Shown here piece by piece: positions 9,961-46,801 of a stretch of DNA of 64,000 nt (position 1 is the stretch's first letter; every line of letters starts with the position of its first letter). The notes under the pieces were generated by a model, which did not search any database, had not been told where the DNA came from, and saw only the letters and a list, made by a program, of their open reading frames with translations. The translations under genes were made by a program, and so were the position numbers. Origin of the DNA: a virus; IMG/VR virus record IMGVR_UViG_3300011114_001049, positions 36,275 to 100,274 of that record. The stretch is one strand, 5' to 3'.

Positions 9961-10542
9961 ATGAAAAGATACGTTAAGCTTTTTGAAAGATATGTTAGAG
10001 AAAACGAAGAAATTGAGCAATTCGGTGACTCAGAATATATGCCTAGTGACGATATGTCTAATAACAATATATATGGCGATTATGACCAAGATGAAATGTC
10101 TAAACCTGAAGTTGTTGAACTTATCGCAAAATACTTTAAAACTAAAATACTACCTGAATTAGAGCCAGAAGAAAAGGCTGAATTAAAAGATATGGCAAGA
10201 GAAGCTACTCCTGAAATGACAGAAGAATATCTTAATGAAGACTTGAGAGATAGATTTAAAAGTTTTAAAGAAAAGGCTATGATCGGTGGTGGACTTGCAA
10301 CAATGGTAACAGGAATGATTACTGCTCTTGGTGAATTTACGGGTTACTCAGAATCTGAGTTAACTATGAGAATTCACGACTTCGTTGAAGGTTTTGGGGC
10401 AGGTCGATACTCAGGTCCGATAACTGTGGCAATGGTATTTGCAGGAATAACAATGGCGTTAAAAGGATATTCAGATAGAGCAAACAGATTAGATACTCCA
10501 TATACAAAAGGTAAAGGTGGAAATGGATTTAACTCGTATTGA
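9961..10542 (+). CDS. putative internal virion protein with two hydrophobic helices
   Basis: N-terminus MKRYVKLFERYVRE; two TM-like segments. Confidence 0.6.
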   Translation: MKRYVKLFERYVRENEEIEQFGDSEYMPSDDMSNNNIYGDYDQDEMSKPEVVELIAKYFKTKILPELEPEEKAELKDMAREATPEMTEEYLNEDLRDRFKSFKEKAMIGGGLATMVTGMITALGEFTGYSESELTMRIHDFVEGFGAGRYSGPITVAMVFAGITMALKGYSDRANRLDTPYTKGKGGNGFNSY

Positions 10543-10578
10543 GTTAGATAAGATAAAGGCTTGTATTTTAAGATTTTA

Positions 10579-11106
10579 TCATCCTTGAGTTTCTAGGTAT
10601 TTCTTAAACCCTGTGCAAGCTTTAACGATTTCTCCGTTGTTGCTTAAATCTCCAACTATGTAATCAAGACTACCCTCGTCGTCGCTTGCAAATGCAGCAC
10701 CAATGACAAATTCTGAACCGTTGTAAGCAAGCTCACTATAGTCTAACATGGAGTTAAGGTAGTACTCAGTGTCTGCCACGGGTATTAGTAATTCGTTCAT
10801 AAAGTTAGAACTGTCAATCTCTGTGTTGTTAACGTCAAGTTCTACACCGCATCTTTTGAATGCATCAGCAACATACTCAAGAAAAGGCGGTAAGTCTTTC
10901 TTAATAATTCCAGTAAGTGGAACAGGCTTAGCTTTCTTCATTGCTTCAACCGCAACTACTTCTACTTCCTTGTCTTCCATGTCCTCGACATTCTTACTGG
11001 TTCCGCTTAGCAGTTGTGCACCTACATCCCATAAATCTGCGTCTCTGCCATTGTTGTAATTGATGCCCTCATTGATATTTGAGAAGTACTCGTTGATGTT
11101 TTTCAT
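10579..11106 (-). CDS. hypothetical acidic protein, CTS-like N-terminus
   Basis: MKNINEYFSNINE. Confidence 0.6.
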   Translation of the reverse strand: MKNINEYFSNINEGINYNNGRDADLWDVGAQLLSGTSKNVEDMEDKEVEVVAVEAMKKAKPVPLTGIIKKDLPPFLEYVADAFKRCGVELDVNNTEIDSSNFMNELLIPVADTEYYLNSMLDYSELAYNGSEFVIGAAFASDDEGSLDYIVGDLSNNGEIVKACTGFKKYLETQG

Positions 11107-11167
11107 ATTATCTTTGTTTTTCTTTTAATTATTTTGCTAATGAATAGATTAGATTATAGATATACAG

Positions 11168-11195
11168 AAAAACCCCTTTATTCAAGGGGTTTTTT
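11168..11195. terminator. intrinsic terminator hairpin, potentially bidirectional
   Basis: AAAAACCCCTT-TATTC-AAGGGGTTTTT at the end of the 11178 gene. Confidence 0.75.
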
Positions 11196-11516
11196 ATTTT
11201 CCTTTAGATAGTCTTCTAAAATTTTTACAATTTCATCAATCTCATATCTAGCTTCATCACTAACCAATTTAAAATTTTTGTATTTGAAAAGAAATAACCA
11301 AAAGAATGCAAAGTGAATTAAGAGCATAAGAAATAAGGTAGCTATTGTGATTCCCAACATACATAAGACGGGTACTCCAAACGTTATTAGGTAAAACACA
11401 AAATTAAAAATTTCTGTATTAGCAATAGATAAAAACTTATATTGCCAAATCACCCTTTTTAATTTGTTTGGCGGTAAGTCTTTATGTAAGTCAGCTTCTT
11501 CTTTGATTTTAGACAT
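11178..11516 (-). CDS. membrane protein with 2 TM segments (start probably ATG 11516)
   Basis: Hydrophobic core; a promoter motif lies at 11539-11565, inside the longer track ORF. Confidence 0.65.
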   Translation of the reverse strand: MSKIKEEADLHKDLPPNKLKRVIWQYKFLSIANTEIFNFVFYLITFGVPVLCMLGITIATLFLMLLIHFAFFWLFLFKYKNFKLVSDEARYEIDEIVKILEDYLKENKKPLE

Positions 11517-11706: not shown

Positions 11707-12474
11707 ATGTACACATCAAATTCAACTGCGTCTAACTCGACGCCCACTGCTAATATTGCAGTAAATCGAAATCGCCTTAAGCATTACACAGGCGATCTAG
11801 TCTATTTAAAGGATGGAACTCATTTTGAAATAGAACTATACAACCCAAAAACCTTCAAGGTCCTGGCTAAAATCTTAGTCAACGGCATAAACGTCTCCGC
11901 TGCAGGCATAGTCATTAGGCCTGGAGAAAGAGTCTTTTTAGAAAGATGGCTGGACAAGTCTAATAAGTTTCTATTTGAGACTTATGAAGTAGACGATTCT
12001 CTAGAGTCTAGAGAAGCAATAGCTCAAAACGGTAAAGTAATAGTTGAGTTCTACGATGAAGTTCAACAAGTAAGCCAGTTCAATCTAGTTGGTCCAAGCA
12101 CGACTGTAAACTCGCTCCTCTTAACTGACTCTCCGACTTGGACAACTAATCCTGTCTATACGGGCACGACTAGCACTCCGTCTTTTGGAGGAACTACTGT
12201 AAATTATTCTACTCAAACGATTGGTGCAAACGCAAGTATAGCAGGTAGTTTGGAAACAGGTAGGGTCGAGAGCGGAGAATCTTCAACTCAAGAATTCTCA
12301 TCAGACTTTACAGGCTTTAACTATTGGATAAATCACAAAGTAGGAATAACTCTCCTACCTGAATCACAAAAGCAGGTAGAAGTAAATGAGATTCGAAACT
12401 ATTGTACTGAATGCGGAACCAGAATGAAGGCAAAGAGCTGGAAGTTCTGTCCTACATGCGGCACAAAAATATAA
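11707..12474 (+). CDS. beta-sandwich-like protein with C-terminal zinc ribbon
   Basis: CTECG...CPTCG; Ser/Thr-rich linker. Confidence 0.75.
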   Translation: MYTSNSTASNSTPTANIAVNRNRLKHYTGDLVYLKDGTHFEIELYNPKTFKVLAKILVNGINVSAAGIVIRPGERVFLERWLDKSNKFLFETYEVDDSLESREAIAQNGKVIVEFYDEVQQVSQFNLVGPSTTVNSLLLTDSPTWTTNPVYTGTTSTPSFGGTTVNYSTQTIGANASIAGSLETGRVESGESSTQEFSSDFTGFNYWINHKVGITLLPESQKQVEVNEIRNYCTECGTRMKAKSWKFCPTCGTKI

Positions 12475-12546: not shown

Positions 12547-13890
12547 ATGAAGCATGTTGCACTATTTGAAAGCTGGATGAGAGAGGAAACGATCATACTT
12601 ACCTCAAGACAAGGTAGAACGATTAGAGTAAAGTCTGTCCACGGTAAGATCGAAGAGATCGATAACGAAGCAGAAATAAGATTTCCTTTTGTGACAGGTC
12701 AGCCAATCACAGTCTTGATGAAGAGTTGGGCCTGTACTAACGGTTTCAAGTGGAACGGTAAAAGTGTTTGTCCAGAAGAAAAAGTATTCGGTATACACAA
12801 GAAAGATATTCCGATGGGTCACGAGTTAAGAATGATGTTTCCTAATAAGTTTAGAAATGAATCGCTAGATAGTATGTCGCTATTAGAAATTTCAAATGGA
12901 GCCATTCCTGATAGTGAGCTGACTGTACTTAACAAGCCTACTGGAGAAAAAGGCGATTCTAAAGTAAGATTAAATTCTAAAGCAGCTATTGATTTTAATA
13001 ATATGGTTGCTGCTGCTAGACTAGAAGGTGTTAATATTGAAGTTAGTCAAGGTTATAGAGACTTGGGTAGTAAAGAGAGAGGTTGTGCTGATGGTTTTAC
13101 TCAATGGTGTGCTTGGAATAAGTATAAGTCAGGAACGGGTAATTTAGCAGCTAGACCAGGAACATCTAATCACGGTAAAGGAAGTGCAGTTGATGTAAAA
13201 AATTGTAGAAAGGGAGGAGCTGTGCACAACTGGTTGAAAATAAACGCTTCTAAGTTTAATTTTAGACCGCTTGCTAGTGAAGCTTGGCACTGGGACCATT
13301 CATCAAGTCGTGAAAGTATTATATCTTCGCTTGACGTGAGTAATACATCTTCACCAGGGAGCGATACTCAATTTACAAATTCTAAAAAATTACCTGAAAA
13401 AATTAAATCTTCAATAGATAAACTAAAAACAAAGTACGGTATTGACATTACTCAATCACACATTGATAAAGAATTTAAACAAGAAGGTGATATACAACCA
13501 GATAACGGTAGAGTTGATAGTGAAGCTAAGAAAAACATTGAAAAATTAATAAAAGATTGTAAAGTATTAAACCCTAACGTTAGGTTTCCTGTAGACATTG
13601 TTTCTGATTATAGAAGTTATGATGACCAAGTAGATAATTTTGGAACAAAGGCTAAAACAAGAGGCGTTGATGACACACAAAAGTATAACACAATTCCTGG
13701 TTTTTCTCAACACCACACAGGAAAGGCTTTTGATATATTTAGTACTGAACCTACTTGGTGGGATACAAATTTAGAAGTTAAAAATTGGGTTGCAGATAAT
13801 TGTAAAAAATATGGGTTTAAGGTAACTTACACAGTTGATGGTGTAATTAGAAAAAAAGAGCCTTGGCATCTATTTTATGTTGGTAGTTAA
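12547..13890 (+). CDS. tandem M15 (VanY/D-Ala-D-Ala carboxypeptidase-like) peptidoglycan peptidase
   Basis: Two complete motif sets: SxH-x6-D...ExWH (SNHGKGSAVD/EAWH and SQHHTGKAFD/EPWH). Confidence 0.85.
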   Translation: MKHVALFESWMREETIILTSRQGRTIRVKSVHGKIEEIDNEAEIRFPFVTGQPITVLMKSWACTNGFKWNGKSVCPEEKVFGIHKKDIPMGHELRMMFPNKFRNESLDSMSLLEISNGAIPDSELTVLNKPTGEKGDSKVRLNSKAAIDFNNMVAAARLEGVNIEVSQGYRDLGSKERGCADGFTQWCAWNKYKSGTGNLAARPGTSNHGKGSAVDVKNCRKGGAVHNWLKINASKFNFRPLASEAWHWDHSSSRESIISSLDVSNTSSPGSDTQFTNSKKLPEKIKSSIDKLKTKYGIDITQSHIDKEFKQEGDIQPDNGRVDSEAKKNIEKLIKDCKVLNPNVRFPVDIVSDYRSYDDQVDNFGTKAKTRGVDDTQKYNTIPGFSQHHTGKAFDIFSTEPTWWDTNLEVKNWVADNCKKYGFKVTYTVDGVIRKKEPWHLFYVGS

Positions 13891-13924: not shown

Positions 13925-15148
13925 TTAAAGAGCTAGCCAATCTTTGAAACTTAATGCCTTATTCTCAACAACTTGTTCCTTTCTCCTAAAAATATCAGCC
14001 GCTCGTACAGCATCAATAGCTTCTTTTGAAATCCAATTCTCAGTCTTAAAGTATGGATAATTAGACTTAGTTGAGTCGATTGCAATCTCAGAAACAAGAC
14101 CAGTATTTATGACATATGCACCTTTGCCAGTCTCTTTGGCTAAACTAACAGTGTCTCCTTTCTTGATTATTCTCCGGTTTGAAGGCCTAGGTGCATTAAA
14201 TGCTGCTTCAGCTGCGGTCCCATCAGGTTTAGTGGTTAACCAATAAACCCATTTGTCTCCTACTTCTAACCATATCTCGTTACCTGTGATTCCTTTAACT
14301 AGATTAGATGTTAGAACAGGTAGAGCTCCCCATACTCCAAACTTCTCGTTTCTTTCCATGAACCACGTTCTATTTGAGACAGTCATTTGCTTTGAAGCCT
14401 CAACCCTTACACCAAAGTCACCAGATCTAAACTCAGTATCAATATCAGCAGCAACCCTCTCAGTAAACTCTTTTATTTTGTCAGTGGTCTGTTTACGAAA
14501 ATCTTCTGGTGACGATAGATCTAAACTTAATAATCCTCTACGTGCAACATCTGTCGATACTTGATGAGCAGACTTTATCTCGCTCGTTAAACTAAAGTCA
14601 ATTCCTGATACTCTAGATAGCCTAGCAAGTTCTGCTTCCCTAGACGAGACTAGGTGTTTTATTGATCGATCTATTATTGTATCTAACTGACTGCTGTTTC
14701 TGCCGTCGCTATTATGTAACAAGATAGTCTGTACGTCAGTTCCAATCGTTACTATCCAAAAATTAGTACCTTCGCGAGTGACTGTCTTATCTAGATCAGA
14801 TCTTTCATATACTGAAAATACTGGAGTTGCTTTAGTACCGTCAGGTAGGATAACTTGAGGCCTAGCCATCAAGACAAGACCAATCTTTGTAGGTTCGATT
14901 GTAGTTTCCCTAAAGAGCACACTCTCAGCAGGTTCAGCTAAAGTAGACAAAGTTTTCCTAAAGAAATATTCTATTTGACTAGTAGTTTCTTCGTCCAATT
15001 TAACAAACGTCTGTGATTTTCCAGTCTGTACTCCAATAACTTTAAGATTAGCTAATCGCCGGTCTGCTCTTTCTAAAAAATGCGCGCCTTTATCTGAGTC
15101 CTTTAGTGAAAGTGCCTCAGTAAGGAACTGATCAAAGCTTTTTATCAT
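13925..15148 (-). CDS. putative internal virion protein
   Basis: MIKSFDQFLTE at the N-terminus, KALSFKDWL at the C-terminus; GATAAATAA at 15166-74. Confidence 0.6.
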   Translation of the reverse strand: MIKSFDQFLTEALSLKDSDKGAHFLERADRRLANLKVIGVQTGKSQTFVKLDEETTSQIEYFFRKTLSTLAEPAESVLFRETTIEPTKIGLVLMARPQVILPDGTKATPVFSVYERSDLDKTVTREGTNFWIVTIGTDVQTILLHNSDGRNSSQLDTIIDRSIKHLVSSREAELARLSRVSGIDFSLTSEIKSAHQVSTDVARRGLLSLDLSSPEDFRKQTTDKIKEFTERVAADIDTEFRSGDFGVRVEASKQMTVSNRTWFMERNEKFGVWGALPVLTSNLVKGITGNEIWLEVGDKWVYWLTTKPDGTAAEAAFNAPRPSNRRIIKKGDTVSLAKETGKGAYVINTGLVSEIAIDSTKSNYPYFKTENWISKEAIDAVRAADIFRRKEQVVENKALSFKDWLAL

Positions 15149-16866: not shown

Positions 16867-17262
16867 CTAAAAATCATAGTCGGAAAAGTCAATTCTTCCT
16901 TGTACAGAGTCTAGTGCATCTCTTAGGTTTGTATGTAGAGCAGTGAGCCAATGAAATGGAGTCTTGTTATTATTCTTGACTACGCTAATTCTTCCTGGAG
17001 AATTTAAGTTTAGCGTTTCTCTTAGGGAAGATTCGTCTCTCCAACTTATCTTATCACCTTTTAATCTTCCATCATTCCATTCAATACGATAGAATACATC
17101 AGATAGAAACATCATCTCAGCTCCGGGTCTAACTTCTATTGAATTCAAAACGTGTGCAGCATAAAGAGGTCGACTGCCTTTTTTAGGTTTTCCTTTTATT
17201 AAAACAATCGCATTATGCTGAACTGCTTCCAATAACTCATCGAATGATATTATGTGTTTCAT
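16867..17262 (-). CDS. hypothetical protein, CTS-like N-terminus
   Basis: MKHIISFDELLE; AATAAATAA at 17269-77. Confidence 0.65.
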   Translation of the reverse strand: MKHIISFDELLEAVQHNAIVLIKGKPKKGSRPLYAAHVLNSIEVRPGAEMMFLSDVFYRIEWNDGRLKGDKISWRDESSLRETLNLNSPGRISVVKNNNKTPFHWLTALHTNLRDALDSVQGRIDFSDYDF

Positions 17263-17307: not shown

Positions 17308-18072
17308 TTGAGTAGAGCAGTAAGTTTTAGAAATTTTTTATTAGAAGATTTTGAATATCACAAGGAGCTTTGTCCTAAGGTTTGGGAAGCATCTGAAAAG
17401 ACTGGTGGGCAGTTTAGGATAAAACCTGAAATCAGAGAAAAATTGATGGCGATAGCTAGTGACTTTTGGAAATCTCTAAAACTTGAAGTCAAAGCAGTAG
17501 ACGTTCAGCTGACTGGCTCTTTGGCTAACTATAATTGGACAAATGCTTCTGACTTAGACGTACACATCATAGTTGATTTTGCAGAGGTAAACCAAGACAT
17601 TGAATTGGTTAGAAAAGCATTAGACGGACAGCGTTTTGTCTGGAATCTAAGACACCCAGTAGTCATCGAAGGTCATGATGTTGAGTGTTATGTTCAGCAT
17701 ACTGAAGCACAACACAAAGCATCGGGTCTCTATTCTTTATTAAGGGATAGGTGGATAATTGTACCGTTTTACAGTCCTCCAAATGTAGATGAACGGGATG
17801 TTAAAGAGAAAACTAGAGTAATAGTAAAGGAGGTTAATGAGATAGAGAATAGATCTAAATCAACAGCTGGTAAAGATGCTAGAGAACTTTTAGATTACTT
17901 AGAAAGGCTTAAGGCAAAGATAATGGCAGATCGTAAATTTGGATTATATGACACTATTTCTGGAGAGTATTCAGTAGAAAACCTAGTTTTTAAAGAGCTT
18001 AGAAAGAATGGGACGATTGAAAAGATAATAGATTTAGCTTCTAATTTATATTCTAAGATTTATTATGAATAA
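17308..18072 (+). CDS. Pol-beta superfamily nucleotidyltransferase
   Basis: LTGSLANY...SDLDVH (hGS-x9-DxD) plus a third acidic residue in VECY. Confidence 0.8.
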   Translation: MSRAVSFRNFLLEDFEYHKELCPKVWEASEKTGGQFRIKPEIREKLMAIASDFWKSLKLEVKAVDVQLTGSLANYNWTNASDLDVHIIVDFAEVNQDIELVRKALDGQRFVWNLRHPVVIEGHDVECYVQHTEAQHKASGLYSLLRDRWIIVPFYSPPNVDERDVKEKTRVIVKEVNEIENRSKSTAGKDARELLDYLERLKAKIMADRKFGLYDTISGEYSVENLVFKELRKNGTIEKIIDLASNLYSKIYYE

Positions 18073-18092: not shown

Positions 18093-18812
18093 ATGTATAA
18101 ATATTTTGACTTTAAAAAGATATTTGAAGACGACGGTTCGATGATGCCACCTGAGCCAAGCACAACTGTCTCTGCACCTGAAGAGTTCTACGTAAATCTT
18201 AAGGAAATTAACAAAACTAGTAAATTACATATTCTTCTTAAAGGGACTGATGTAGATATTTTGAAGACACAAGGATCATTAACAACGACTGCTGAGTTCA
18301 AGAAAATTGGTAATGAGACGATGATCAACCCTGTACAAATTATTCTATTCAATGCAGACGCAGGTAAAAATATTCCTGAAGCGACAGGTAATGTCTTAAT
18401 CCTAACACTAACTAACGAAATAATGACTAGAGTGTTAGAAGGAATAGACGGTGGAAATACAATAGAAGAGGAGATCGCTGCACCAAATGAACAGCTAGGT
18501 GGAGAAAGGATAAAAGTATCATTTACTAGAGAAATTGATGTTACTAATGTTAAGTCTGGCGAGATTGTATCTCCAGTAGCAGATACAGATATTCTTCCAG
18601 CAGAAGCAGAGGCAATGACGACTATGGAGGCTATGCCCGAATCAATAGGCCGACTTTTAAAGTTTAATGAGTTTGTAAATGAGAGCAAGAAGAAAGAGAA
18701 GATGATGCTTGATACTAAAGTAAAGAGTATACCAACAAAGAAGAAAAAACCAGAAGCTGATGAAATTGCTAAAGAGCTAAAGAAGCTCGAAGGTAAGCTT
18801 GTTAAAAAATAA
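18093..18812 (+). CDS. hypothetical protein with N-terminal and internal CTS-like motifs
   Basis: MYKYFDFKKIFE; RLLKFNEFVNE. Confidence 0.65.
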   Translation: MYKYFDFKKIFEDDGSMMPPEPSTTVSAPEEFYVNLKEINKTSKLHILLKGTDVDILKTQGSLTTTAEFKKIGNETMINPVQIILFNADAGKNIPEATGNVLILTLTNEIMTRVLEGIDGGNTIEEEIAAPNEQLGGERIKVSFTREIDVTNVKSGEIVSPVADTDILPAEAEAMTTMEAMPESIGRLLKFNEFVNESKKKEKMMLDTKVKSIPTKKKKPEADEIAKELKKLEGKLVKK

Positions 18813-18819
18813 AAAAGAA

Positions 18820-19518
18820 ATGAGACTAAACGAATGTTCATGTGGCTGCGGTAAAACTGAAGAGTGCAAAGAAGAATTAAGCAACTATATGTTTACTGCA
18901 AACTTATATACAATTAAACGCACAGTCGATACTTTACTAGAAATGGACCAAGCTGCAATTGATCGAGTATTAACTAATGGTCATGATTGGGCATCAGATC
19001 ATATCTCTACAGCAAAAGATGATCTACAAGAGGTCTCTGAGTTTTTTATCAATGAATTAGGTAGAGAATCATCAGTAAGAATGATGGGATCAGACCCTAG
19101 ACTAGCTGACAATATAGCAATAAAGACATTTGAAAGCTTTTTAAATGAGGGCAAGAAGAAAAAAGACAATGATGAAGATGGCGATACTGACTTTGCTGAC
19201 GCTAAAATTGCTCAATATATTGCAGGCGGAATGTCAAAGGCTGAAGCAATCAAGAAGTCTAGAAAGTTCAATAAGTCAGTAAAAGAGGGATTTTGGAATA
19301 GATGGACAAAGCCTTCTATTGATCAAGCTGCTTCAGATTCAGTAAAAGGTCAAGGATACAGCCACCGAGGTAACGATGATGATGCTGAATACATTATGTT
19401 TGATGGTGAAAGATTCAGCCAAGACCAAATTGAATACGCCGACTATCATGACACTGGTCGACTTCCTAGAGTTGAAGACAGTATGTTAATTATTGCTAAT
19501 CCAAACTGGAGTCTTTAA
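18820..19518 (+). CDS. modular hypothetical protein (start probably ATG 18820)
   Basis: Modules separated by LNE / IKTFESFLNE / VKE; acidic DGDTDFAD loop. Confidence 0.65.
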   Translation: MRLNECSCGCGKTEECKEELSNYMFTANLYTIKRTVDTLLEMDQAAIDRVLTNGHDWASDHISTAKDDLQEVSEFFINELGRESSVRMMGSDPRLADNIAIKTFESFLNEGKKKKDNDEDGDTDFADAKIAQYIAGGMSKAEAIKKSRKFNKSVKEGFWNRWTKPSIDQAASDSVKGQGYSHRGNDDDAEYIMFDGERFSQDQIEYADYHDTGRLPRVEDSMLIIANPNWSL

Positions 19519-20040: not shown

Positions 20041-20451
20041 ATGCCAGGAAGAGTTTTAACCTTTTTTGAATTTTCTGATAAGTATTCTAACGGTGAAGCT
20101 ACCGAGAAGGACTTGCAGGACGTAACTTCAGCTGCCTCAAACTTCTCAGACGGATTTGATGATTCAACATATGATCAGCCTGAACTAAAGCCAAACCGAC
20201 CAGTAAACGGTGGTTATGAGACTACTCCAGCATCGCCTACTGGGTTTAACCCAGAACAATCTGATCAAATGGATATACCAGAAGGAGAAGAAGCTGAAGA
20301 AGACGATGATTCTGAAGATAAAGAAGAAGAAACTGACGAAGACGATGATGAAAAAGATGAAGCTAAGGGAAACCCAGAAGAATCTAATGAATCTAAAAGA
20401 ATCATAAAGTCTTTTACTAGCTATGTAAATGAGTCTAGATTAAAAAGATAA
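20041..20451 (+). CDS. acidic low-complexity protein with CTS-like motifs at both ends
   Basis: RVLTFFEF...; RIIKSFTSYVNE. Confidence 0.65.
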   Translation: MPGRVLTFFEFSDKYSNGEATEKDLQDVTSAASNFSDGFDDSTYDQPELKPNRPVNGGYETTPASPTGFNPEQSDQMDIPEGEEAEEDDDSEDKEEETDEDDDEKDEAKGNPEESNESKRIIKSFTSYVNESRLKR

Positions 20452-20467: not shown

Positions 20468-20731
20468 ATGAAAATCAAAACATTTTCACAATTTATAATC
20501 TCTAAAAAAATTAATGAGGACGACGCAACAGATCTTGACCTAAGTGCTAATGATGGTGCAGCTTCTTTCCATACCGGTTATTATGGAAAAAATCCACAAG
20601 AAATAATAGTTGACGAGACGGGTAGCAGTAAGATACGTAAAAATAAAAAAGTAGACATACTTGAGTTAGAATCAATAAAAGGAATAGTTAAAGATCTCTC
20701 TGAAAGAGTAGGTAAACTTAAGAAAAAATAA
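20468..20731 (+). CDS. hypothetical protein, CTS-like N-terminus
   Basis: MKIKTFSQFIISKKINE. Confidence 0.65.
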   Translation: MKIKTFSQFIISKKINEDDATDLDLSANDGAASFHTGYYGKNPQEIIVDETGSSKIRKNKKVDILELESIKGIVKDLSERVGKLKKK

Positions 20732-22396: not shown

Positions 22397-22663
22397 ATGA
22401 GGACGACTAACGAATGGTATGGTGCTAACACCATGGGAACCGATGCAAATTACATAATCCCATCGCCTGACGAAAAAAGGTTTAATCATCTAATGTACAC
22501 TGCAGGTGCAAGTACAACAGTACCATCCCATTGGAATAACTCTCCTTTTTTAGCAGGCGGTAGAATGACTAGTACATTTGGTTCTAATCCTAAAGAAGAA
22601 AAGAAAAGAAAAATCATGACATATAAGCAATTTCTAGAGTCAAAAATAAAAAGAAATAAATAA
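22397..22663 (+). CDS. hypothetical protein, C-terminal CTS-like motif
   Basis: RKIMTYKQFLE. Confidence 0.65.
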   Translation: MRTTNEWYGANTMGTDANYIIPSPDEKRFNHLMYTAGASTTVPSHWNNSPFLAGGRMTSTFGSNPKEEKKRKIMTYKQFLESKIKRNK

Positions 22664-22678: not shown

Positions 22679-22933
22679 ATGGGATACATTAAAAACTTTA
22701 CAAACTTTACTACGTCTAAAGAAGGCGCAGTTAGTGAAGAGACTGATGTAATGTTAACTGATGTAACTCTAACTGATCTTTCTAAGAAAATTCAAGATTA
22801 CAAGAACCAGATAAACCAGTGGGAAAAGGCAATTGAAGATCGAAAAAAAGTATTAGCTGATACTGCTAAAGCTGCAGCTGCACAAGTAGTTACACCAGCG
22901 CCTGCAGCACCAGCTCAACCTGCTACTTCCTAA
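22679..22933 (+). CDS. small coiled-coil protein, CTS-like start
   Basis: MGYIKNFTNF. Confidence 0.65.
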   Translation: MGYIKNFTNFTTSKEGAVSEETDVMLTDVTLTDLSKKIQDYKNQINQWEKAIEDRKKVLADTAKAAAAQVVTPAPAAPAQPATS

Positions 22934-22934: not shown

Positions 22935-23381
22935 ATGAATAGAAAAATAAAGACATATAATGATTTCACTAATGAATCGACTAGAGAAGTCGTTTACCCT
23001 AGTAATTTTAAAGGTATGGTCCAAAGTACCTTATCTGGACTCTATACTCAGATCATTGCTATAGCTCAAGAATTAGCTAACGAAAAAGCCGCTAGAAACC
23101 CAGGTAGGTACTCAGGTACTCTAGAAGAGGTAGATATTACTAGGGCTATGAATATGATATTCCACAGCGATTGGAAGAAGAAGATTAAAGAGAGGGCCAT
23201 TGGAGAGGTTTTACAAAAGTCAATGGCTAGGGCAGGTAAACAGGATGAAGTTATAGGTAAGAAGAATCTTAGAGCATTAGGTAGATCAAATGGAGATACT
23301 GACTTTAAGGTAGACATCAATAAATCTAGTGTAAGATTTAGTGATAAAAAAGATGGTGGTGGGACTGGTTCAAACCAATAA
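22935..23381 (+). CDS. hypothetical protein, CTS-like start
   Basis: MNRKIKTYNDFTNE. Confidence 0.65.
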   Translation: MNRKIKTYNDFTNESTREVVYPSNFKGMVQSTLSGLYTQIIAIAQELANEKAARNPGRYSGTLEEVDITRAMNMIFHSDWKKKIKERAIGEVLQKSMARAGKQDEVIGKKNLRALGRSNGDTDFKVDINKSSVRFSDKKDGGGTGSNQ

Positions 23382-26006: not shown

Positions 26007-27719
26007 TTAAAGTTGACCAGCTGCGCCTACTTCTCCTCCTTCTTTGGTCTCGCTACCGCCGGCCTCAGCAGCGGCGCCTGCGGCAGCTGGTGCGGCTCCG
26101 CCTGGTGCAGGTGGTGCAGCTGGAGCGGCAGGTGCAGCAGCTGCTGCTTCCGCTTCAATTTCAAGTTTTTGATCAAACCATTGCTGATTTGATTCAATCT
26201 CACTCTCAGTAAGTTTAAGTTCTTTTCTAACTAAGTATTCAGTAGAGAAGAACGGTGTACCGTCGTCTTTCATGACTCCTTTTTTGGCTTGGAATGCAGC
26301 TATACGCTTTGCCTCAATGTCGTTCTGCTTAGCCTCTTCAAAGATATTGTCGTTATTATAGTTAATCCCAATTGCATTATTAAATTTATAGTCATCACCA
26401 AGCTCAGGAAAGTCTAAACACATTTGTAGATACCATGGCTTTACTAATAATTCAGAAAAGGCTGATCTTAATCGTCTAATGAATTTTTGGTATCTTACCT
26501 CTTCTCTAGTTATACCTTCAGCATTAAGGGTAAATGCACCCATTCCGCTTTGTCCTTCCCAACGAGAATAAGGAATTTTAGAATCCATCTTCAACTTCTT
26601 GTAAAAGTAGTTAAGGAGTTCTGAACCAGAAAGGTTTGGTCCAGGTGTTTGTAAAGCCTCTATCTTTATCTGCTGTTGCTGATCGTTTATTGGCATAACA
26701 TAATTCTTGTAGAAAAGAATATTAGGTTTACCGTCAACACTTAATTCACCAGTATCTCCATTGAAACTAATATCTTCTTTAAACAGATTTAAAAACTCAC
26801 GAACATCTTCTTGGCCTTTTTGAAAGCTTTTACTTCCAATTGGAACCGTAGTAGTTAGACGAATTGGCGCATTCATTACGTGCCAAATTACTTTACTATG
26901 CTCGATGATTCTTAATAAGTTGAACGACCTAATTAATCTCTCTACGAAACTTACTCGCTTTGTCCTAAAGTGGTTGGCATAAGATAAGTATATTATTTGT
27001 GAATCATTCAATACTCTAGTTGAACCACTAGTTGGATCGTACTGTACCCACTGTAAGAAAAGCTTGCCCTTAGGATCTTTTTGTAGTTGAGGAGCGATAC
27101 TTGCAGGATCGATCTCTTTAAAACCTATTATCTCCTTTGGTTTTTCTAAGTTATCATATAGGATCTCAAAAGAAAGGTGTCCTTCTACTAAGAATTGAAA
27201 GGCATACTGCCAAGCAGCGATACCTTCACCGAATCCCCAAGCAGTATAGATCTTTTCAAAGTTATCATTGTACTTATTAATCACAGATTCTTGATAGTGT
27301 AAACGATCTTCTTTGGTGTTTCCTCTATATAGAAGCTTGCCTGTCATGTCTTTTGCATAGGCAAACCTTGCCTCTTCATCATAGACCACCATGTCATCGA
27401 CTATTGTTTCTAAGATGAATTCTATCTCTCCATTTGATGCAACATCCCGTAAGCGCTCTCTCTTAACTACATAATCTAACTGAAAAAAAGCAATAGCTTT
27501 TGTTCTTAGTTGAGAAGTAGTATCAGCAATAGCCATTGAAAATTTCATCAATTCGTCATTGGAGCTTAGCCTAGAGCTTCTAGCCTGTAACTGACCCTCA
27601 ATGAATCCGATTGCTTGTGAGTTTTTTAAGAGAAGATCCTCATGGCGAGTACCAAACTTACTTAAACTGGCCAAAGCTCCTCCAGTTCTTCCTTTCAATG
27701 TGTCTAAAAATCCAGCCAT
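26007..27719 (-). CDS. gp20: portal vertex protein, T4 gp20-like
   Basis: LRIIEHSKVIW, YFYKKL...KIPYSR, ITREEVRYQKFIRRLR; Ala/Pro/Gly-rich tail. Confidence 0.85.
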   Translation of the reverse strand: MAGFLDTLKGRTGGALASLSKFGTRHEDLLLKNSQAIGFIEGQLQARSSRLSSNDELMKFSMAIADTTSQLRTKAIAFFQLDYVVKRERLRDVASNGEIEFILETIVDDMVVYDEEARFAYAKDMTGKLLYRGNTKEDRLHYQESVINKYNDNFEKIYTAWGFGEGIAAWQYAFQFLVEGHLSFEILYDNLEKPKEIIGFKEIDPASIAPQLQKDPKGKLFLQWVQYDPTSGSTRVLNDSQIIYLSYANHFRTKRVSFVERLIRSFNLLRIIEHSKVIWHVMNAPIRLTTTVPIGSKSFQKGQEDVREFLNLFKEDISFNGDTGELSVDGKPNILFYKNYVMPINDQQQQIKIEALQTPGPNLSGSELLNYFYKKLKMDSKIPYSRWEGQSGMGAFTLNAEGITREEVRYQKFIRRLRSAFSELLVKPWYLQMCLDFPELGDDYKFNNAIGINYNNDNIFEEAKQNDIEAKRIAAFQAKKGVMKDDGTPFFSTEYLVRKELKLTESEIESNQQWFDQKLEIEAEAAAAAPAAPAAPPAPGGAAPAAAGAAAEAGGSETKEGGEVGAAGQL

Positions 27720-28863: not shown

Positions 28864-29181
28864 TTAACCTATGTATTTTGCAATCAAGTCGTCTGCATCC
28901 CTTGGGTCAAGAGAACCAAGTTCAACCAATTTTAATACTAACGAAGCGACTGCAAGGTTTTCAGGAATGTCTTCTTCAGACAATTCAAGATCTTCGTTAT
29001 TAAATGCTTCTTCCAATTCAGCATGAGCAGCTATTGCAGCCTGCTCAACTTCTTCTTCAGAACCAACAAGTTCAACTAGTTCATCCAATAATGCGGTGTC
29101 AACAACTATCATCTCTTCTGCAGACTCGTCTTCATTTATTTTTTTAGAAGCGAATTGTCTTAATGACATGATTTTATTCAT
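28864..29181 (-). CDS. acidic protein, CTS-like start
   Basis: MNKIMSLRQFASKKINE; GATAAATAA at 29198-206. Confidence 0.65.
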   Translation of the reverse strand: MNKIMSLRQFASKKINEDESAEEMIVVDTALLDELVELVGSEEEVEQAAIAAHAELEEAFNNEDLELSEEDIPENLAVASLVLKLVELGSLDPRDADDLIAKYIG

Positions 29182-36212: not shown

Positions 36213-36213
36213 C

Positions 36214-36471: not shown

Positions 36472-36483
36472 TTATAATTTAGT

Positions 36484-36732
36484 TTATAGTTGTAATTCAC
36501 TGTGGGAGTAATCATGTGTATGCTGTAGTGCCTGTAAGTCTGCAAATCTATTCGCATTATATCCTAACCATGGTAATCCCATTGAGGTTCTCCCCTCGTT
36601 AGCTACTCCTACTATGATATACACTTTTTGATCAAAGTTATTAATAAATTCACGTAATACTTCGTATTCTTGCCCACGAACAACCTGTCCACCGATTGGC
36701 TGCTTTGTATCGTTTATACACACTACTTGCAT
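36484..36732 (-). CDS. hypothetical protein
   Basis: ORF. Confidence 0.65.
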   Translation of the reverse strand: MQVVCINDTKQPIGGQVVRGQEYEVLREFINNFDQKVYIIVGVANEGRTSMGLPWLGYNANRFADLQALQHTHDYSHSELQL

Positions 36733-36747
36733 TTCTTTTAGTTTTTG

Positions 36748-38310: not shown

Positions 38311-38313
38311 AAT

Positions 38314-38748
38314 TTATAAACCCAATGTTTTTTCAATGTCTAGCCTAGTCTTTATTCCAAAAATTATGCTGTCGATTGTTTTAATAGATTCACTATAGAA
38401 TGAAATTTGATTTTCAAAAAGCTCTAGTGACTCCTTTGTACTTGAAGTTTTACCTTCAATCACAACTGTCTTTTCATTAGACTGATATCTAATTTGTAAA
38501 TTTTTAGAGAGATTTTCCATTTCGCTAGACCTCTCTTCCCTAAACTTTTTGCGTAATGTAGTAATGTTCTCTAACAGAGTATGATTATCTTCAAGAAGAC
38601 GTTGCCTAAGAGAAAGCATGTTTACTTGAGCAATCTTAAGAGTTTTAAGATTACTTAGTTTTTCAATGTTTTCATAGATCTCAGTTGAGACAGTTGCTCG
38701 ACTTTCACTAAACTTTTTGGCTATTTTCTTTTTGGTCTCTTCGTTCAT
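38314..38748 (-). CDS. UvsY-like recombination mediator
   Basis: Helical 144 aa next to UvsW; C-terminal 'IKTIDSIIFGIKTRLD' pattern. Confidence 0.5.
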   Translation of the reverse strand: MNEETKKKIAKKFSESRATVSTEIYENIEKLSNLKTLKIAQVNMLSLRQRLLEDNHTLLENITTLRKKFREERSSEMENLSKNLQIRYQSNEKTVVIEGKTSSTKESLELFENQISFYSESIKTIDSIIFGIKTRLDIEKTLGL

Positions 38749-38807: not shown

Positions 38808-39293
38808 CTATCCTACGAAATCAACAAAGCGGTATAGATTGGAACCTAGCTGAAAATGATCTTCATTTTTCATATCGTCCTTATCTATAGAGGTCAGTAT
38901 TTCGTTTCCGATTACTGCAGAACTGCCGTTTTTGAAATAGTAGCTAACATACTCTCCTCCTTGTTTACCGACTACCATTGCTTTTATTTTATGCTTTTCA
39001 TACAGTTTAGGTATACTCTCTATAAAAGGTTGAGACTCGTCTAATTTCATGAAGACTGATGGATATGCAACAAGTTGTCCGTTCTTAGAAAGAAACGCTT
39101 TTTGATAAATGCAATTATATTCAGCAAGCATTGTTGATTTAGTGAGTAGATAACTTTCTTTGTTTAAAAATATAATGATTGCAAAAGGAAGTCTGCTCTG
39201 TACAGTATCTCTAAGGTCTGACCAGGAAGGAGCAAAGCTCGCCTTATTGTTTTCTTTAGAAAAATCTTCAAATAATGTAAGATATTTAGTCAC
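38808..39293 (-). CDS. hypothetical protein, CTS-like start
   Basis: MTKYLTLFEDFSKE; GATAAATAA at 39314-22. Confidence 0.65.
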   Translation of the reverse strand: MTKYLTLFEDFSKENNKASFAPSWSDLRDTVQSRLPFAIIIFLNKESYLLTKSTMLAEYNCIYQKAFLSKNGQLVAYPSVFMKLDESQPFIESIPKLYEKHKIKAMVVGKQGGEYVSYYFKNGSSAVIGNEILTSIDKDDMKNEDHFQLGSNLYRFVDFVG

Positions 39294-40533: not shown

Positions 40534-41079
40534 ATGCCAAAGTTTAAAAAGTTTTCACAGTTTGTAAACGAAGCTGAAGTAATGACTATTCCACTTAAGG
40601 GATATGAAACAGACGTTGTTATCCAAAGAATAGAAGAATTAGTGGAAGCCCTTTCAGATGGAGTTAAGTTTGGAGTCCCATCAGATTACTTGGGTAGAGC
40701 AACTACGTATAAAGATGCAAACGGAGCTATTCAAAGAATAAAAGACATACAACATTACTATGACAGTAAAGCGGAAGAAGTTAGATTCTACTGTTGGTCG
40801 ATAAGTTATGAAGGCAGCTGGAAAGCTACTAAAAATTTAAGAAGTAAGATAGAAAAAGCAGGTGGTTTTGGAGATCAACCAAATAATATAAACTTAAAAA
40901 AAGTAATTGATTATTTTACTGAAAACGCTGAGGATTCAGATAATGTTGCAACTATCTCAATCAGCATAGATTCACCTACTGTTAGAAAATCAATGCAAGT
41001 CACAAAACCTGCGGAAACTCAACCACAGCAACCGACTAATACTCGACCACAAGAGCCGGCTGAAGAACAAGAAGCATAA
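40534..41079 (+). CDS. hypothetical protein, CTS-like start
   Basis: MPKFKKFSQFVNE. Confidence 0.65.
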   Translation: MPKFKKFSQFVNEAEVMTIPLKGYETDVVIQRIEELVEALSDGVKFGVPSDYLGRATTYKDANGAIQRIKDIQHYYDSKAEEVRFYCWSISYEGSWKATKNLRSKIEKAGGFGDQPNNINLKKVIDYFTENAEDSDNVATISISIDSPTVRKSMQVTKPAETQPQQPTNTRPQEPAEEQEA

Positions 41080-42943: not shown

Positions 42944-42958
42944 TTTTTTTGATATAAT
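42932..42958 (+). promoter_or_regulatory. class-II promoter GAAC-N17-TATAAT
   Basis: Conserved geometry. Confidence 0.55.
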
Positions 42959-42987
42959 ATACTATCAAAAAAAATCTATCTTTAATT

Positions 42988-44553
42988 ATGAGATTTAAAG
43001 AATTAACAGAAAATGACAAGATTAAAATTAGCGAAACTTACTTTAATAAAGAACTCTCTTGGGAAAAACGAATAGCTTCTCTTGCAGATCATTATGACGT
43101 TTCAAGCAGAACAGTAGAAAGATGGGTATCTAAATTAGGACTTACTACTAAGACACAAGAGGAATCACCTCAATTAAAACTAGCAAAAGCAAAATCTTTT
43201 AATAAAAGAAAGAAGAGATTTATCATAACTTGGGCACAGAACGATACCCCAGTCCATGATAATTTTATTCTAAATATGGAGACCTACGCTGATTTTATAA
43301 ATGCAGACATCCACGTTATTGCTGGCAGATATAGGAATCCAACATCTATTTTTACTGATGAAGGCTGTGATGTTTGGTCTAAGAGAATAGAGAAGTACTT
43401 AGACGCAAACCGCCATGATATTCACAAGTATGTATCAATCATGTCTGACATTAAGATTCAGCCTACTGCGGTAAACCCAATGACTGGTCTACAGGGCATG
43501 AGCGGAATAAACTCGTGCGTGTTCGGTTCGCCTAAAGTACAGATGGAAATGATACCTGTACTAGAAGGTAGCGTACCTAAGATGATGTTGACTACTGGTG
43601 CTTGTACTGTAACTAATTATACTGATTCTAGAGCAGGCAAGAAGGGAGAGTTTCACCATACTTTGGGTTTTGTTGTTGTCGAGATAAAAGGAAACGATAT
43701 CTTTTTCATGAGACAGGTCACAGCTACTGAAGATGGAAATTTCTGTGATCTTTTCTATAAGGTAAGTTTACAAGACGGCGAGAGTCGAGTTGATGAAGTG
43801 GATCGGGTCTCTGCTCTAATTTGGGGAGACATCCATTATGGTCATCATGATCAGAGGGTGTTTGATACTACTGTTTCATTAATGGAAAAGATAAATCCAG
43901 ACCACGTAGTATTACATGACGTATTTGACGGTAAATCGATTAGTCACCATGAAGAAAAGGATCCATTCATCCAGTATCAAAAAGAAATGGAGGGTACTAA
44001 TTCTCTACGTACTGAGATAGAAGACCTCTTAGAAGGACTTGAAGTGTTTGAGGATTACAACACAGTAATAGTTCGAAGCAATCACGATGATTTTCTGGAT
44101 AGGTGGTTAAAGAACACGGATTGGAGAAAAGCAATTACTCCAAAGAACTCACTAGAATACATGCAATACTCTGCCGCTATCTTAAGCGGAGATGCACCAA
44201 ATGGTGTGATACCTTGGGTGATAAATAATAAATATCCTCACTTCGTAACATTAGGACGAAGCGATAGTTATATTGTTAATGGTTGGGAGTTAGGTCAGCA
44301 TGGTGATATAGGTGCTAGTGGAAGTAGAGGATCTCTACAGCAATTTAGAAATCTAAACACCAAGATAGTAGTAGGTCACTACCACTCGCCAGGTAGAAAG
44401 GACGGTGCACTGGCAGTTGGGACTTCAACTAAATTAAGAGTAGGTTATAACATAGGTGCCAGTGGATGGCTACACTCACATGTAATCATTCATGAAAACG
44501 GTAAGGCACAACATATTAACCTCGTTAAGGGAGAGTATACGACCCTAAAATAA
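42988..44553 (+). CDS. N-terminal HTH plus calcineurin-like metallophosphoesterase
   Basis: LADHYDVSSRTVERW; GDIH, HDVFDG, SNHD, QHGD, GHYHS. Confidence 0.8.
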   Translation: MRFKELTENDKIKISETYFNKELSWEKRIASLADHYDVSSRTVERWVSKLGLTTKTQEESPQLKLAKAKSFNKRKKRFIITWAQNDTPVHDNFILNMETYADFINADIHVIAGRYRNPTSIFTDEGCDVWSKRIEKYLDANRHDIHKYVSIMSDIKIQPTAVNPMTGLQGMSGINSCVFGSPKVQMEMIPVLEGSVPKMMLTTGACTVTNYTDSRAGKKGEFHHTLGFVVVEIKGNDIFFMRQVTATEDGNFCDLFYKVSLQDGESRVDEVDRVSALIWGDIHYGHHDQRVFDTTVSLMEKINPDHVVLHDVFDGKSISHHEEKDPFIQYQKEMEGTNSLRTEIEDLLEGLEVFEDYNTVIVRSNHDDFLDRWLKNTDWRKAITPKNSLEYMQYSAAILSGDAPNGVIPWVINNKYPHFVTLGRSDSYIVNGWELGQHGDIGASGSRGSLQQFRNLNTKIVVGHYHSPGRKDGALAVGTSTKLRVGYNIGASGWLHSHVIIHENGKAQHINLVKGEYTTLK

Positions 44554-44563
44554 TTAAGGTAAA

Positions 44564-44761
44564 ATGTCAGAACATGAGAGTAGAAAAAACTATAAAAAGT
44601 ACATTCAAGGAAAGGAACCTTTAAAGAATGCAATGGTTCAACATCCTGACGAAAAGGAGGATACTTCCATATATGACTACCTAAAGGGAAAGGTTAAGCG
44701 AGACTTTTGGATAATACCATATGAAAGATTTACAAAGCAGATAAATAAGAAAAAGAATTGA
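44564..44761 (+). CDS. small hypothetical protein
   Basis: ORF in operon. Confidence 0.6.
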   Translation: MSEHESRKNYKKYIQGKEPLKNAMVQHPDEKEDTSIYDYLKGKVKRDFWIIPYERFTKQINKKKN

Positions 44762-44764
44762 CTT

Positions 44765-46801
44765 ATGAGTTTTGCTGAGTATTTAAACCAATGGATGAAT
44801 CATAACTCTTTATTTGAGAGTAAAAAGAAAGTATCTAGTGCACCAGTAAAAGACGATGATGCTGAGAATAAGGAAGAGCCTAGTGAATTATCGACGCTAT
44901 TCACAATAGTAAAAGAGAAGATAGGTGGAGATATTAATGATAGCTTAGCTAGAACAACATCGTTTGAAGCAATTCGTCAAACATTAGATGGAATCGAACA
45001 GGATCAAATATCCACTATTAAAAATTCCAATGAGCTTGCGGGATTAATAAAACAGATGACTGAATCTAGTAAGATTCCTTTTTTACAAGCATACCTTAAG
45101 AACCTTAGAAGTAATTTAAACAAGATATCGTCTGAAAAGAAAAGGTTTAAACACGGAGAAGACTTCAAGAAGTTTTATAACTTAAAGTCTAGAGAGTCTC
45201 TAGCCATCAATAGAATCTATAAGCTTTACACTATATTTAATTATCTAGACAGTCAGCCAGAAACTGACTTGGAGACAGCGACACTAGTTTCAATTAGAGA
45301 GAAAGATAATAACTTAAGAAAAAGGGGAGAGGAGAATACTTTTAAGATTAAGAGCATCGGCAACGTAGATGAAGGTACTGAAAGTAATAAGTTTGAAATA
45401 GAATACGAAGATGGTACAGTAGAGACACTGATTAAGACTGAAATCAGTAACTTAATGAGGGTAGATACTGAAGGTAATGAGGTAGAGATAGACATCAAAA
45501 TAGCCAAAAGAATCAAAGAGGCTATTAAAAAGCTTTCTAAGTCAACTGAGGATGCGATAAAAAAAGAAGTCGCTGAATCAATAGAAGTTGATATTGATAA
45601 GATCGACGAGATTCCCGATACTGATGAAGGTAGAGAATCACTAGAAATAAATTGGAAGCCTCTGATCGATGCACTTGGTGCAAGGGAGGTACTTCAGCCA
45701 GCCATCGAGAAAAAAGAAAAGGTTTTACCGCCTCCAGCCAAGCCTACTTGTAAAAAGAAGTCAATGATTAAGAACAAACTTTTTTCTGCATTGAACTCTT
45801 GTCTTCTACCTAAGATACAGAACGGTGAAGCACTTCCTCCAGGAGGAGACTATTACAAGTTATTTAAGGCTCTTGAAAAACAGAATGCAGTCTGGATGGA
45901 ATTTTCTATAAAGCAAGAAATGCCAGACGGAGCAATAAATTCTCAATTCAATGCTGGACCTAGAGTGAAAGAGAGCGGCTCAGAAGAGAGTCAACTTTCC
46001 TATTTAAAGCTTTGTAAAAGATGGATTGTACAATACATAGAGAGCGAAGTAGACTGTGTACTTTCAGAAAAGGAACAGACTCAAGCAGTCACTAAGATTG
46101 AGAATATAAGTAAAGAAAAAGAGAGAGAGATTAGAAATTATTATATTTCAAAGGACATTAACATGGGTAACTTCAAAGGAATCCAGTTAAAACCCGATCT
46201 TCGACTACCTCTCTACACTAGAGTTAAATTAGCAGTTAGTGAGGCTGATCGAATAGCAGAGAGTCCGCTAAGGAATTTTATTAAAGGACTAGGTCAAATT
46301 ATGACGGGTCTATTGTCTGGAATAGACGATAGGGGAGATGCTGCAGTTGCAGCAAAAAATGCTGCATCAAATAAGGCGATCTTTAATGGAATATTAAGCA
46401 TAGTTAAAGGTGGAGTAACTGTAGTAGGTGGAAAACAGGCAGGTCGAGACTTTGATAAAGGCGTAGAGAAAGTCACCAAGACTCTTAGAACAGATGCACT
46501 AGGCTTGAGTCAATATAAAGCAGGCGAAGGTCCCCAGTTCTTCAAATCGGCAGAAGGTAAGACTGGTAGAGAACGCCCACTAAGAGAAGACATGCTTTCT
46601 ATTGCTGATACAGGCTCTCCGGTAATCAATCTTGAAGCCCCTGGCCAAACTCATCAGACTCCAAGCAGCCTACCAGTCGACTCAGTGGATCCGCTATTCT
46701 TAGCTGGCCCAGGTAAGAAGGTAAATAAGAAGACGGCTAAGAAAAGCAAAAAGTTCGGTCAAAAGGTAATGAATTTTGGAGATTTCTTGAAAGAGAAATA
46801 A
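44765..46801 (+). CDS. large putative internal virion protein
   Basis: MSFAEYL...LFE at the N-terminus, KVMNFGDFLKE at the C-terminus; GATAAATAA at 44740. Confidence 0.55.
   Translation: MSFAEYLNQWMNHNSLFESKKKVSSAPVKDDDAENKEEPSELSTLFTIVKEKIGGDINDSLARTTSFEAIRQTLDGIEQDQISTIKNSNELAGLIKQMTESSKIPFLQAYLKNLRSNLNKISSEKKRFKHGEDFKKFYNLKSRESLAINRIYKLYTIFNYLDSQPETDLETATLVSIREKDNNLRKRGEENTFKIKSIGNVDEGTESNKFEIEYEDGTVETLIKTEISNLMRVDTEGNEVEIDIKIAKRIKEAIKKLSKSTEDAIKKEVAESIEVDIDKIDEIPDTDEGRESLEINWKPLIDALGAREVLQPAIEKKEKVLPPPAKPTCKKKSMIKNKLFSALNSCLLPKIQNGEALPPGGDYYKLFKALEKQNAVWMEFSIKQEMPDGAINSQFNAGPRVKESGSEESQLSYLKLCKRWIVQYIESEVDCVLSEKEQTQAVTKIENISKEKEREIRNYYISKDINMGNFKGIQLKPDLRLPLYTRVKLAVSEADRIAESPLRNFIKGLGQIMTGLLSGIDDRGDAAVAAKNAASNKAIFNGILSIVKGGVTVVGGKQAGRDFDKGVEKVTKTLRTDALGLSQYKAGEGPQFFKSAEGKTGRERPLREDMLSIADTGSPVINLEAPGQTHQTPSSLPVDSVDPLFLAGPGKKVNKKTAKKSKKFGQKVMNFGDFLKEK

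Follow-up and report, generated by a model that had tools for sequence, protein, structure and literature searches.

The stretch of DNA studied here, which we call the window, comprises the 64,000 nt between bases 36,275 and 100,274 of a 100,274-bp linear IMG/VR record of an uncultured phage (IMGVR_UViG_3300011114_001049). CheckV puts the completeness of this record at 36%, and the full phage genome is probably ~250-280 kb long. The window holds a T4 gp20-type portal gene, a replication block (positions 29226-38748, with a UvsW-like helicase, a family-B polymerase and a Toprim primase), a glycan block (53260-64000) and a series of late genes whose otherwise unrelated products share a short peptide, which we refer to as the tag (Table 1). 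The consensus of the tag spans 11 residues, [IV]-K-x-[FY]-x-x-[FYW]-[IVL]-x-E-[SA]. An earlier note, made from the letters of this DNA alone, had singled out the motif and proposed that it loads many proteins into the phage head.

A recurrent peptide on late genes

We call open reading frames (ORFs) of at least 45 aa across the whole record (n=165) and build a position-specific scoring matrix (PSSM) seeded with the 13 clear N-terminal copies of the tag, using a main cut-off of 14 bits. Over the whole record 17 sites exceed this cut-off, compared to 0.14 in shuffled proteomes. Thirteen of them occupy residues 2-16, their Glu falling at residue 11-16, and the other four are internal or C-terminal; those four, none of which served as a seed, fall in window genes 18093, 18799 and 20041 and in a gene straddling the window start. 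A plain regular expression, [FYWLM]..[FYW][LIVMFTS].E with its start at residue 12 or earlier, matches 15 ORFs of the record, where shuffling whole proteins leaves 1.6 matches and shuffling the first 25 residues leaves 1.9 (maximum 8 in 1000); the same expression run on 100 kb of T4 finds two internal proteins (IPs) and one chance match only. Both sets of shuffles reject a chance origin of the motif, and the earlier observation that it recurs far above background is borne out.

How many genes carry the tag depends on where the line is drawn. The ten N-terminal sites that the earlier note listed all translate as given, and the solid copies within the window score 17-27 bits; four of its examples are degenerate or not significant when judged singly, namely 17262(-), 20468, 29181(-) and the C-terminal site of 22397. 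Its figure of about 20 carriers is likely too high for the window, which has ~11-12 solid ones; only over the whole 100-kb record do the carriers number 17 solid ones and perhaps up to ~30. A relaxed N-terminal pattern finds 27 of the other 152 ORFs, where ~15 +/- 3.5 are expected, and because of this excess ~10 further degenerate tags may be real, none of which can be called individually.

Table 1. Tagged genes and head-gene landmarks of the window. Positions are those of the window; the promoter column gives the distance in nt from ATAAATA to the start codon.
Gene	Strand	Product	Tag or variant	PSSM (bits)	Promoter	Similarity and remarks
9961..10542	+	193-aa late protein	VKLFERYVRE, residues 5-14, nt 9973-10002	21.4	28	no family found in Pfam or PHROGs
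12547..13890	+	447-aa tagged enzyme	VALFESWMRE, residues 4-13, nt 12556-12585	18.1	12	VanY/M15 D-Ala-D-Ala carboxypeptidase domain, residues 322-446 (Pfam PF02557, 1.1e-33); phrog_16823 match at residues 135-267
13925..15148	-	407-aa tagged protein	IKSFDQFLTE, residues 2-11, nt 15116-15145	25.0	25	no match in Pfam, PHROG or ESM Atlas
16867..17262	-	131-aa protein	degenerate ISFDELLE, one residue short	negative	14	tag alone not significant
17308..18072	+	254-aa tagged nucleotidyltransferase-fold protein	AVSFRNFLLE, residues 4-13, nt 17317-17346	18.4		phrog_36119, 7.5e-36; weak Pfam NTP_transf_2/MTPAP
18093..18812	+	239-aa acidic protein	internal LLKFNEFVNE, residues 188-197, nt 18654-18683	17.4 (non-seed)	24	Lys-rich tail after the tag
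18799..19518	+	239-aa protein	internal IKTFESFLNE, residues 108-117, nt 19120-19149	20.3 (non-seed)
20041..20451	+	136-aa very acidic protein	near-C-terminal IKSFTSYVNE, residues 122-131, nt 20404-20433	19.3 (non-seed)	26
20468..20731	+	87-aa protein	variant KTFSQFIISKKINE, Glu displaced by 4 residues	11.9 (core)		individually uncertain
22397..22663	+	88-aa protein	degenerate C-terminal MTYKQFLE, nt 22616-22639	low
22679..22933	+	84-aa protein	weak N-terminal variant IKNFTNFTTSKE	6.5	23
22935..23381	+	148-aa tagged core protein	IKTYNDFTNE, residues 5-14, nt 22947-22976	23.3		adjoins head-tail adaptor-like gene
26007..27719	-	T4 gp20-type portal				phrog_213, 1.7e-56
28864..29181	-	105-aa acidic protein	doubtful variant MSLRQFASKKINE	negative (N-terminus)	24	upstream of the portal, same direction
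38808..39293	-	161-aa tagged protein, GTG start	LTLFEDFSKE, residues 5-14, nt 39252-39281	17.1	28
40534..41079	+	181-aa tagged protein	FKKFSQFVNE, residues 4-13, nt 40543-40572	26.6	24
44765..46801	+	678-aa late protein with poly-Lys tract	C-terminal VMNFGDFLKE, residues 668-677, nt 46766-46795	7.0 alone	24
63273..64000	-	last gene of the record				overlaps contig L102; synteny anchor to protease-scaffold and capsid genes

The tag goes together with late promoters. Counting as a late promoter any ATAAATA(A) within 120 nt upstream of the start codon, we find one before 11 of the 17 N-terminally tagged genes and before 24 of the 148 others in the record (Fisher p = 4.6e-5), usually 12-31 nt from the start; the listed genes without a promoter of their own sit in operons behind a tagged gene that has one. 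The enrichment that the earlier note had set as a check is therefore present, and the association it reported is real, with 11 of 15 listed genes rather than its ~14 having the element. Also as the note had it, replication and glycan genes are free of the tag: neither block contains a site of 11 bits or more. One match only, of 12.5 bits, turns up in the small early ORFs to the left of the window, and this lies in a 53-aa ORF.

Most carriers resemble nothing in Pfam or PHROGs. Those that do include the VanY/M15 peptidase and the nucleotidyltransferase-fold protein of Table 1, so the prediction that enzymes are among the tagged proteins stands; outside the window a leucine-rich-repeat-variant protein and a protein with an HExxH motif are tagged as well. 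Twelve minus-strand genes in a row occupy record positions 671-11,449, left of the window, and almost every one of them bears the tag or a variant; we regard this island at the left end of the record as a dense cluster of candidate cargo genes.

Portability of the tag and its conservation in relatives

How do proteins that look so different come to share the same ten or so residues? Paralogy of the carriers is rejected: when the first 20 residues are removed, blastp among 31 carriers finds no pair at E 1e-3. Nor are the tags copies of one another at the level of DNA, with the codons for the Phe, Glu, Asn, Ser and Ile/Val of the tag varying synonymously between genes. Because the codons vary in this way and the carriers have no similarity outside the tag, these comparisons argue that selection acts on the tag peptide.

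The same data bear on the idea that the likeness arose incidentally, from duplicated DNA cassettes (late promoter, leader and first codons) or a translation-initiation element, with the peptide itself unselected. The stereotyped spacing from promoter to start (~12-31 nt) and the A/T-rich first codons are what such an origin would leave behind, but it is largely refuted by the synonymous differences, by significant copies that lie well within ORFs or at C-termini, a long way from a start codon, and by orthologs that keep the tag residues at 54-98% identity. We give a cassette origin next to no credence.

Conservation is seen most directly in a set of 80 IMG/VR loci whose portal is 66-99% identical to the one in the window. 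These contain 106 N-terminal and 48 internal tag matches of at least 12 bits, and the internal ones occupy orthologous positions. The internal tag of gene 18093 is found at the same position in the orthologs of many relatives, orthologs of gene 18799 keep KTFESYVNE near residue 101-108, and those of gene 20041 (194-226 aa) have the tag at residues 132-160. Of the N-terminal copies, that of the nucleotidyltransferase (17308) is kept in 106 of 120 homologs, at 54-98% identity, and most of the 14 untagged homologs begin at an internal Met, with a length reduced by ~31 residues. In gene 22935 the pattern K-[TS]-Y-x-x-[FY]-[IV]-[NT]-E-[SAGV] is kept in all 24 distinct orthologs. Thus the proposal of a portable, position-independent tag holds up, in that carriers are not paralogous and N-terminal, internal and C-terminal copies occur at positions kept in relatives.

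A 207-kb relative (G001) can be compared for the tagged genes to the right of window position 20,000, where its contig begins. Its ortholog of gene 39293(-) keeps LKTFQHYLNE and that of gene 40534 (61% identity) keeps LRSFDQYLVE, while its ortholog of gene 22397 has an N-terminal tag of 17.6 bits together with a C-terminal LRFHEFIG; the ortholog of gene 29181(-) in G001 has no clear tag. Further afield, a 41-kb stretch around the portal in each of LR756500 and Lak-A2 reveals no tag expansion by PSSM, with the proviso that recoding in Lak makes ORF calls there unreliable.

The C-terminal copies follow a rule of their own. Four orthologs of gene 44765 end in a [VI]-[LM]-x-F-x-D-F-h core at the extreme C-terminus, after the poly-Lys tract, and have D, R, T or Q at the position of the Glu. 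Because the aromatic core is kept here without the Glu, a targeting role is favoured over that of a mere cut site, and the pattern fits a separation of targeting from cleavage in the C-terminal copies.

Head genes and comparison with the T4 capsid targeting sequence

The portal gene gives the first indication of the kind of head in which such a tag might operate. By tblastn it matches 1947 phage records, mostly T4-likes and cyanophages, with the best matches in huge uncultured phages and Prevotella Lak phages; on the basis of this gp20-like portal the phage is placed in the T4 superfamily. The neighbouring head genes come from contig L102, which overlaps the last 711 bases of the window (63290-64000) at 96.8% identity. 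Past the overlap L102 encodes, in order, a DnaJ-like protein, a protease-scaffold fusion of 663 aa and a gp23-type capsid protein of 545 aa. The N-terminal domain of the 663-aa protein is 32% identical to T4 gp21 (E 3e-10), keeps the His (ELDHP) and Ser (VSSR) motifs and matches the gp21 structure PDB 5JBL (E 1e-4), and the full length of the 545-aa protein aligns with T4 gp23 at 25% identity (E 2e-23). In four larger relatives PF03420 and PF07068 score above cut-off in the same gene order. A gp21-family (Peptidase_S77) protease is thus very probably encoded just past the end of the record.

The scaffold part of the fusion resembles the tag itself. Residues 295-448 of the L102 protein contain nine sites of the form [FYW]xx[FYWH][ILVM]xE, compared to 0.12 in shuffles, and the scaffold carries nine to ten tag-like sites with an exact 14-residue period, an arrangement conserved in 11 relatives at 62-100% identity. 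The repeated unit reads approximately [IV]-x-Y-x-x-Y-[ILV]-x-E-x-L-N-x-S, with the same spacing as [IV]-K-x-F-x-x-F-[IV]-N-E-S in the tag. A complex prediction that paired the scaffold repeats (residues 285-460) with the N-terminal 45 residues of the 148-aa protein (22935) speaks neither for nor against binding, and the AlphaFold2 model of that protein, helical and of low confidence (pLDDT 59), was not used.

In T4 the capsid targeting sequence (CTS) is carried by IPI, IPII, IPIII and Alt and is removed by the prohead protease gp21 (Mullaney and Black 1996; PMC9026906, PMC9958956, PMC3012670), and the use of a CTS by T4-like phages to pack diverse proteins is established (PMC3012670, PMC9026906). 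In the T4 genome (AF158101) IPII and IPIII start MKTYQEFIAEA and IPI starts MKTFKEF; one ortholog of gene 22935 reads KTYQEFINEA, close to these. Amber-suppressor experiments assign CTS residues 4 and 7 to targeting and residues 8 and 10 to processing, and an Asp at position 10 blocks cutting and not loading (PMC9026906). The four conserved positions of the tag are these same four: the aromatics at 4 and 7, the hydrophobic residue at 8 and the Glu at 10. The maturation site of T4 gp23, at the end of a 65-residue propeptide (PMC9958956), has the same pattern (FGSFLTE|A, cut at Glu65) and scores 10.3 bits with the tag PSSM.

We therefore favour, with a probability of roughly 70%, a reading in which the motif is an expanded, position-independent version of the T4 capsid targeting system combined with a cut site for a gp21-family protease. 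This agrees with the earlier identification of the tag as a T4-type CTS, to which the match with T4 targeting and processing residues, the T4-type portal, and the protease and capsid genes on L102 now lend support. Like the T4 CTS, the tag typically makes up an N-terminal stretch of 10-16 residues in late proteins that have nothing else in common, with the pattern K-x-[FY]-x-x-F-[IV]-x-E-[AS] and a predicted hydrophobic-x-Glu cleavage rule, and the portal, capsid protein, late promoter and, very probably, the protease are T4-type. It differs in scale, in that T4 has three IPs and Alt, whereas here 17 solid and up to ~30 carriers occur per 100 kb of the ~250-280-kb genome; in position, with internal and C-terminal copies, the latter mostly without Glu; in architecture, since gp21 and gp22 are separate in T4 and this clade fuses the protease to a scaffold of tag-like 14-residue repeats; and in content, with a VanY/M15 peptidase and a nucleotidyltransferase-fold enzyme among the candidate cargo.

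The cleavage rule by itself could be explained more simply, if the tag were only a site or propeptide for the prohead protease, serving activation or clearance, and the proteins entered the head by other means. The h-x-E rule fits gp21-type cutting, the pattern recurs at the gp23 site and in the scaffold repeats, and the internally tagged proteins resemble substrates that are meant to be split. Yet it is hard to see why 11-16 residues should be trimmed off ~13 unrelated proteins if the peptide did nothing beforehand, the most conserved positions include both aromatics, whose role in T4 is in targeting and not in cutting (PMC9026906), and the C-terminal copies in four orthologs keep the aromatics and lose the Glu. 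A role in cleavage alone seems unlikely to us.

A DnaJ-like protein of 323-331 aa, with a J-domain and a C-terminal domain, is encoded directly upstream of the protease-scaffold gene (L102:7320-8291 (-); G001 51831-52826), and may act as a chaperone of the phage when the head is assembled. Its place there is also what one might point to if the tag were an address for something other than the capsid, such as an amphipathic membrane anchor, a recognition element for a DnaJ-like chaperone or a sorting signal for another compartment; predictions for the tag go no further than an amphipathic helix. Against any such address stand the position-for-position match to the experimentally defined T4 CTS, the repetition of the pattern in the head scaffold and the fact that only late genes carry the tag, many of these belonging to the head module. 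We consider a non-capsid address improbable and return to the reading as a CTS.

Several observations weigh against that reading or limit it. In the portal, the best matches among annotated phages are only 31-36% identical. The record itself has no gp21 or gp23 homolog (PF03420, PF07068) because it ends ~90 nt past its last gene, so that protease, scaffold and capsid are all taken from the overlapping contig. The scaffold repeats score just 2-6 bits with the tag PSSM because Tyr stands in place of Phe, so that tag and scaffold resemble each other in pattern rather than in close sequence. Among the nucleotidyltransferase homologs, strong conservation extends into the residues that directly follow the tag, so this N-terminus could in part be an element of the fold. 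The 207-kb relative has only ~11 tag matches, and the extent of the expansion therefore varies. Finally, genes 18093, 18799 and 20041 encode acidic, low-complexity proteins with a tag in mid-protein followed by a Lys-rich segment, which look like degradable core or scaffold proteins and may be these rather than cargo or effectors; the earlier picture of the carriers as effectors is thus weakened for this group.

Proposed mechanism, related systems and neighbouring genes

Drawing on homology with T4, from which we infer core binding, cleavage, retention in the head and ejection, we can sketch how the system might work. Late genes would be transcribed from T4-type promoters (ATAAATA ~12-31 nt before the start codon), and their products would bear an amphipathic peptide, M-[KR]-x(1-4)-[IV]-[KR]-x-[FY]-x-x-[FYW]-[IVL]-x-E-[SA], whose two aromatics and following hydrophobic residue would dock the carrier onto a prohead core built by the protease-scaffold fusion. 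Once the shell is closed, the fused S77 protease would cut after the Glu and free N-terminally tagged cargo inside the head; the same cutting would split internally tagged core proteins and fragment the scaffold at each repeat, while C-terminal tags, mostly without Glu, would remain attached. The retained proteins, among them the cell-wall peptidase and the nucleotidyltransferase-fold enzyme, would then be delivered with the DNA. A stronger version, which we offer tentatively and judge rather less probable than not, is that the tag is one unit of the scaffold's 14-residue repeat, so that cargo would co-assemble as a scaffold mimic with its label at any position, cleavable with Glu and permanent without; on this version 10-18% of the genes of a widespread freshwater jumbo phage clade would code for packaged proteins, and sequence alone would suffice to list them, injected enzymes included.

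Short loading peptides and protease-scaffold fusions are known from other shells. Encapsulin cargo-loading peptides are short and portable and load unrelated enzymes into an HK97-fold shell; they are usually C-terminal and not removed, and in this they resemble the C-terminal copies here. They differ in having an unrelated consensus and in binding the shell directly, with no protease, scaffold or DNA. In lambda (C/Nu3) and in herpesviruses the maturation protease is joined, as a fusion or through nested genes, to the scaffold that it later degrades, as is predicted for the L102 protein; the protease families are different, and we know of no cargo family in these viruses that bears a copy of a scaffold repeat.

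The giant phages of the phiKZ type are closer in size and chemistry. In phiKZ, 201phi2-1 and SPN3US, propeptides of inner-body and ejection proteins are cut by a gp21-related protease (PMC5694885, PMC10052503), at (A/S/G)-x-E sites and often at a length above 100 residues (PMC5694885). These propeptides have no linear tag in common. Shared with our phage are the jumbo size, many different head-packed proteins and a homologous protease cutting after Glu (both predictions in our case), and propeptides that are thought to target proteins to the prohead. What differs is that P3 here is Ile, Val or Leu, with a short shared label that can be read from sequence. We do not assign the tag to this propeptide class: each of the 13 seeds has I, V, L, M, F or T at P3, and the N-terminal propeptides would measure 11-16 residues. 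In the literature we found no description of a CTS expanded to tens of proteins, of position-independent CTS copies or of CTS-like repeats forming a scaffold that is joined to a protease.

It is important to note what follows if the tag does work like the T4 CTS. Proteins injected by a phage act before any phage gene is expressed and are hard to identify in uncultured phages; here the packaged protein set can probably be read from the sequence, the packaged proteome of a whole environmental jumbo phage clade would become predictable in the same way, and candidate cell-wall, takeover and anti-defence enzymes could be selected for testing. The protease fused to tag-like scaffold repeats offers a concrete, testable model for the binding partner of a CTS, and the Glu-bearing N-terminal and Glu-less C-terminal tags offer a natural separation of targeting from cleavage.

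Some further genes deserve mention. Between tagged genes lies an untagged late gene (window 42988-44553) for a 521-aa protein that matches phrog_1745, 'DNA transfer protein' (1e-152), and also a metallophosphoesterase family; megablast of window 41084-46801 against annotated phages gives no match. Two other late proteins, of 911 aa (window 3987-6722) and 309 aa (8774-9703), have ~35 similar N-terminal residues and both contain WG-x-ES-x-EQK and EEQAL-x-EQA. Neither has a family match, and a shared N-terminus of this sort is typical of alternative fibre or receptor-binding proteins with a common attachment domain.

Among the small early ORFs, those at L001:11638-11817, 12060-12350 and 18632-18841 (L001 positions are in record numbering) and at L002:1217-1678 begin with M-D-I-M-V-I-F-T-Y-N-L-K or its last nine residues, which more likely reflects a repeated early promoter cassette being read through than a peptide tag. 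In the replication block, a 476-aa ORF (window 31833-33263 (-)) matches only the middle of family-B DNA polymerase (PF00136 positions 146-238); it starts near polymerase motifs and may be one of two genes between which the polymerase is divided, as described for some T4-related phages.

A last locus is found in the 207-kb relative, where G001 C1:169882-171823 (L123) encodes ribosomal protein bS21 (PF01165, 27.7 bits), followed directly by a tagged 163-aa Nudix-box protein and then by a 421-aa protein with a variant of the tag and a peptidoglycan-binding-like region. The arrangement recalls the bS21-encoding freshwater Bacteroidetes phages, in which bS21 and its neighbouring gene are highly expressed late (10.1101/2021.10.11.463225).

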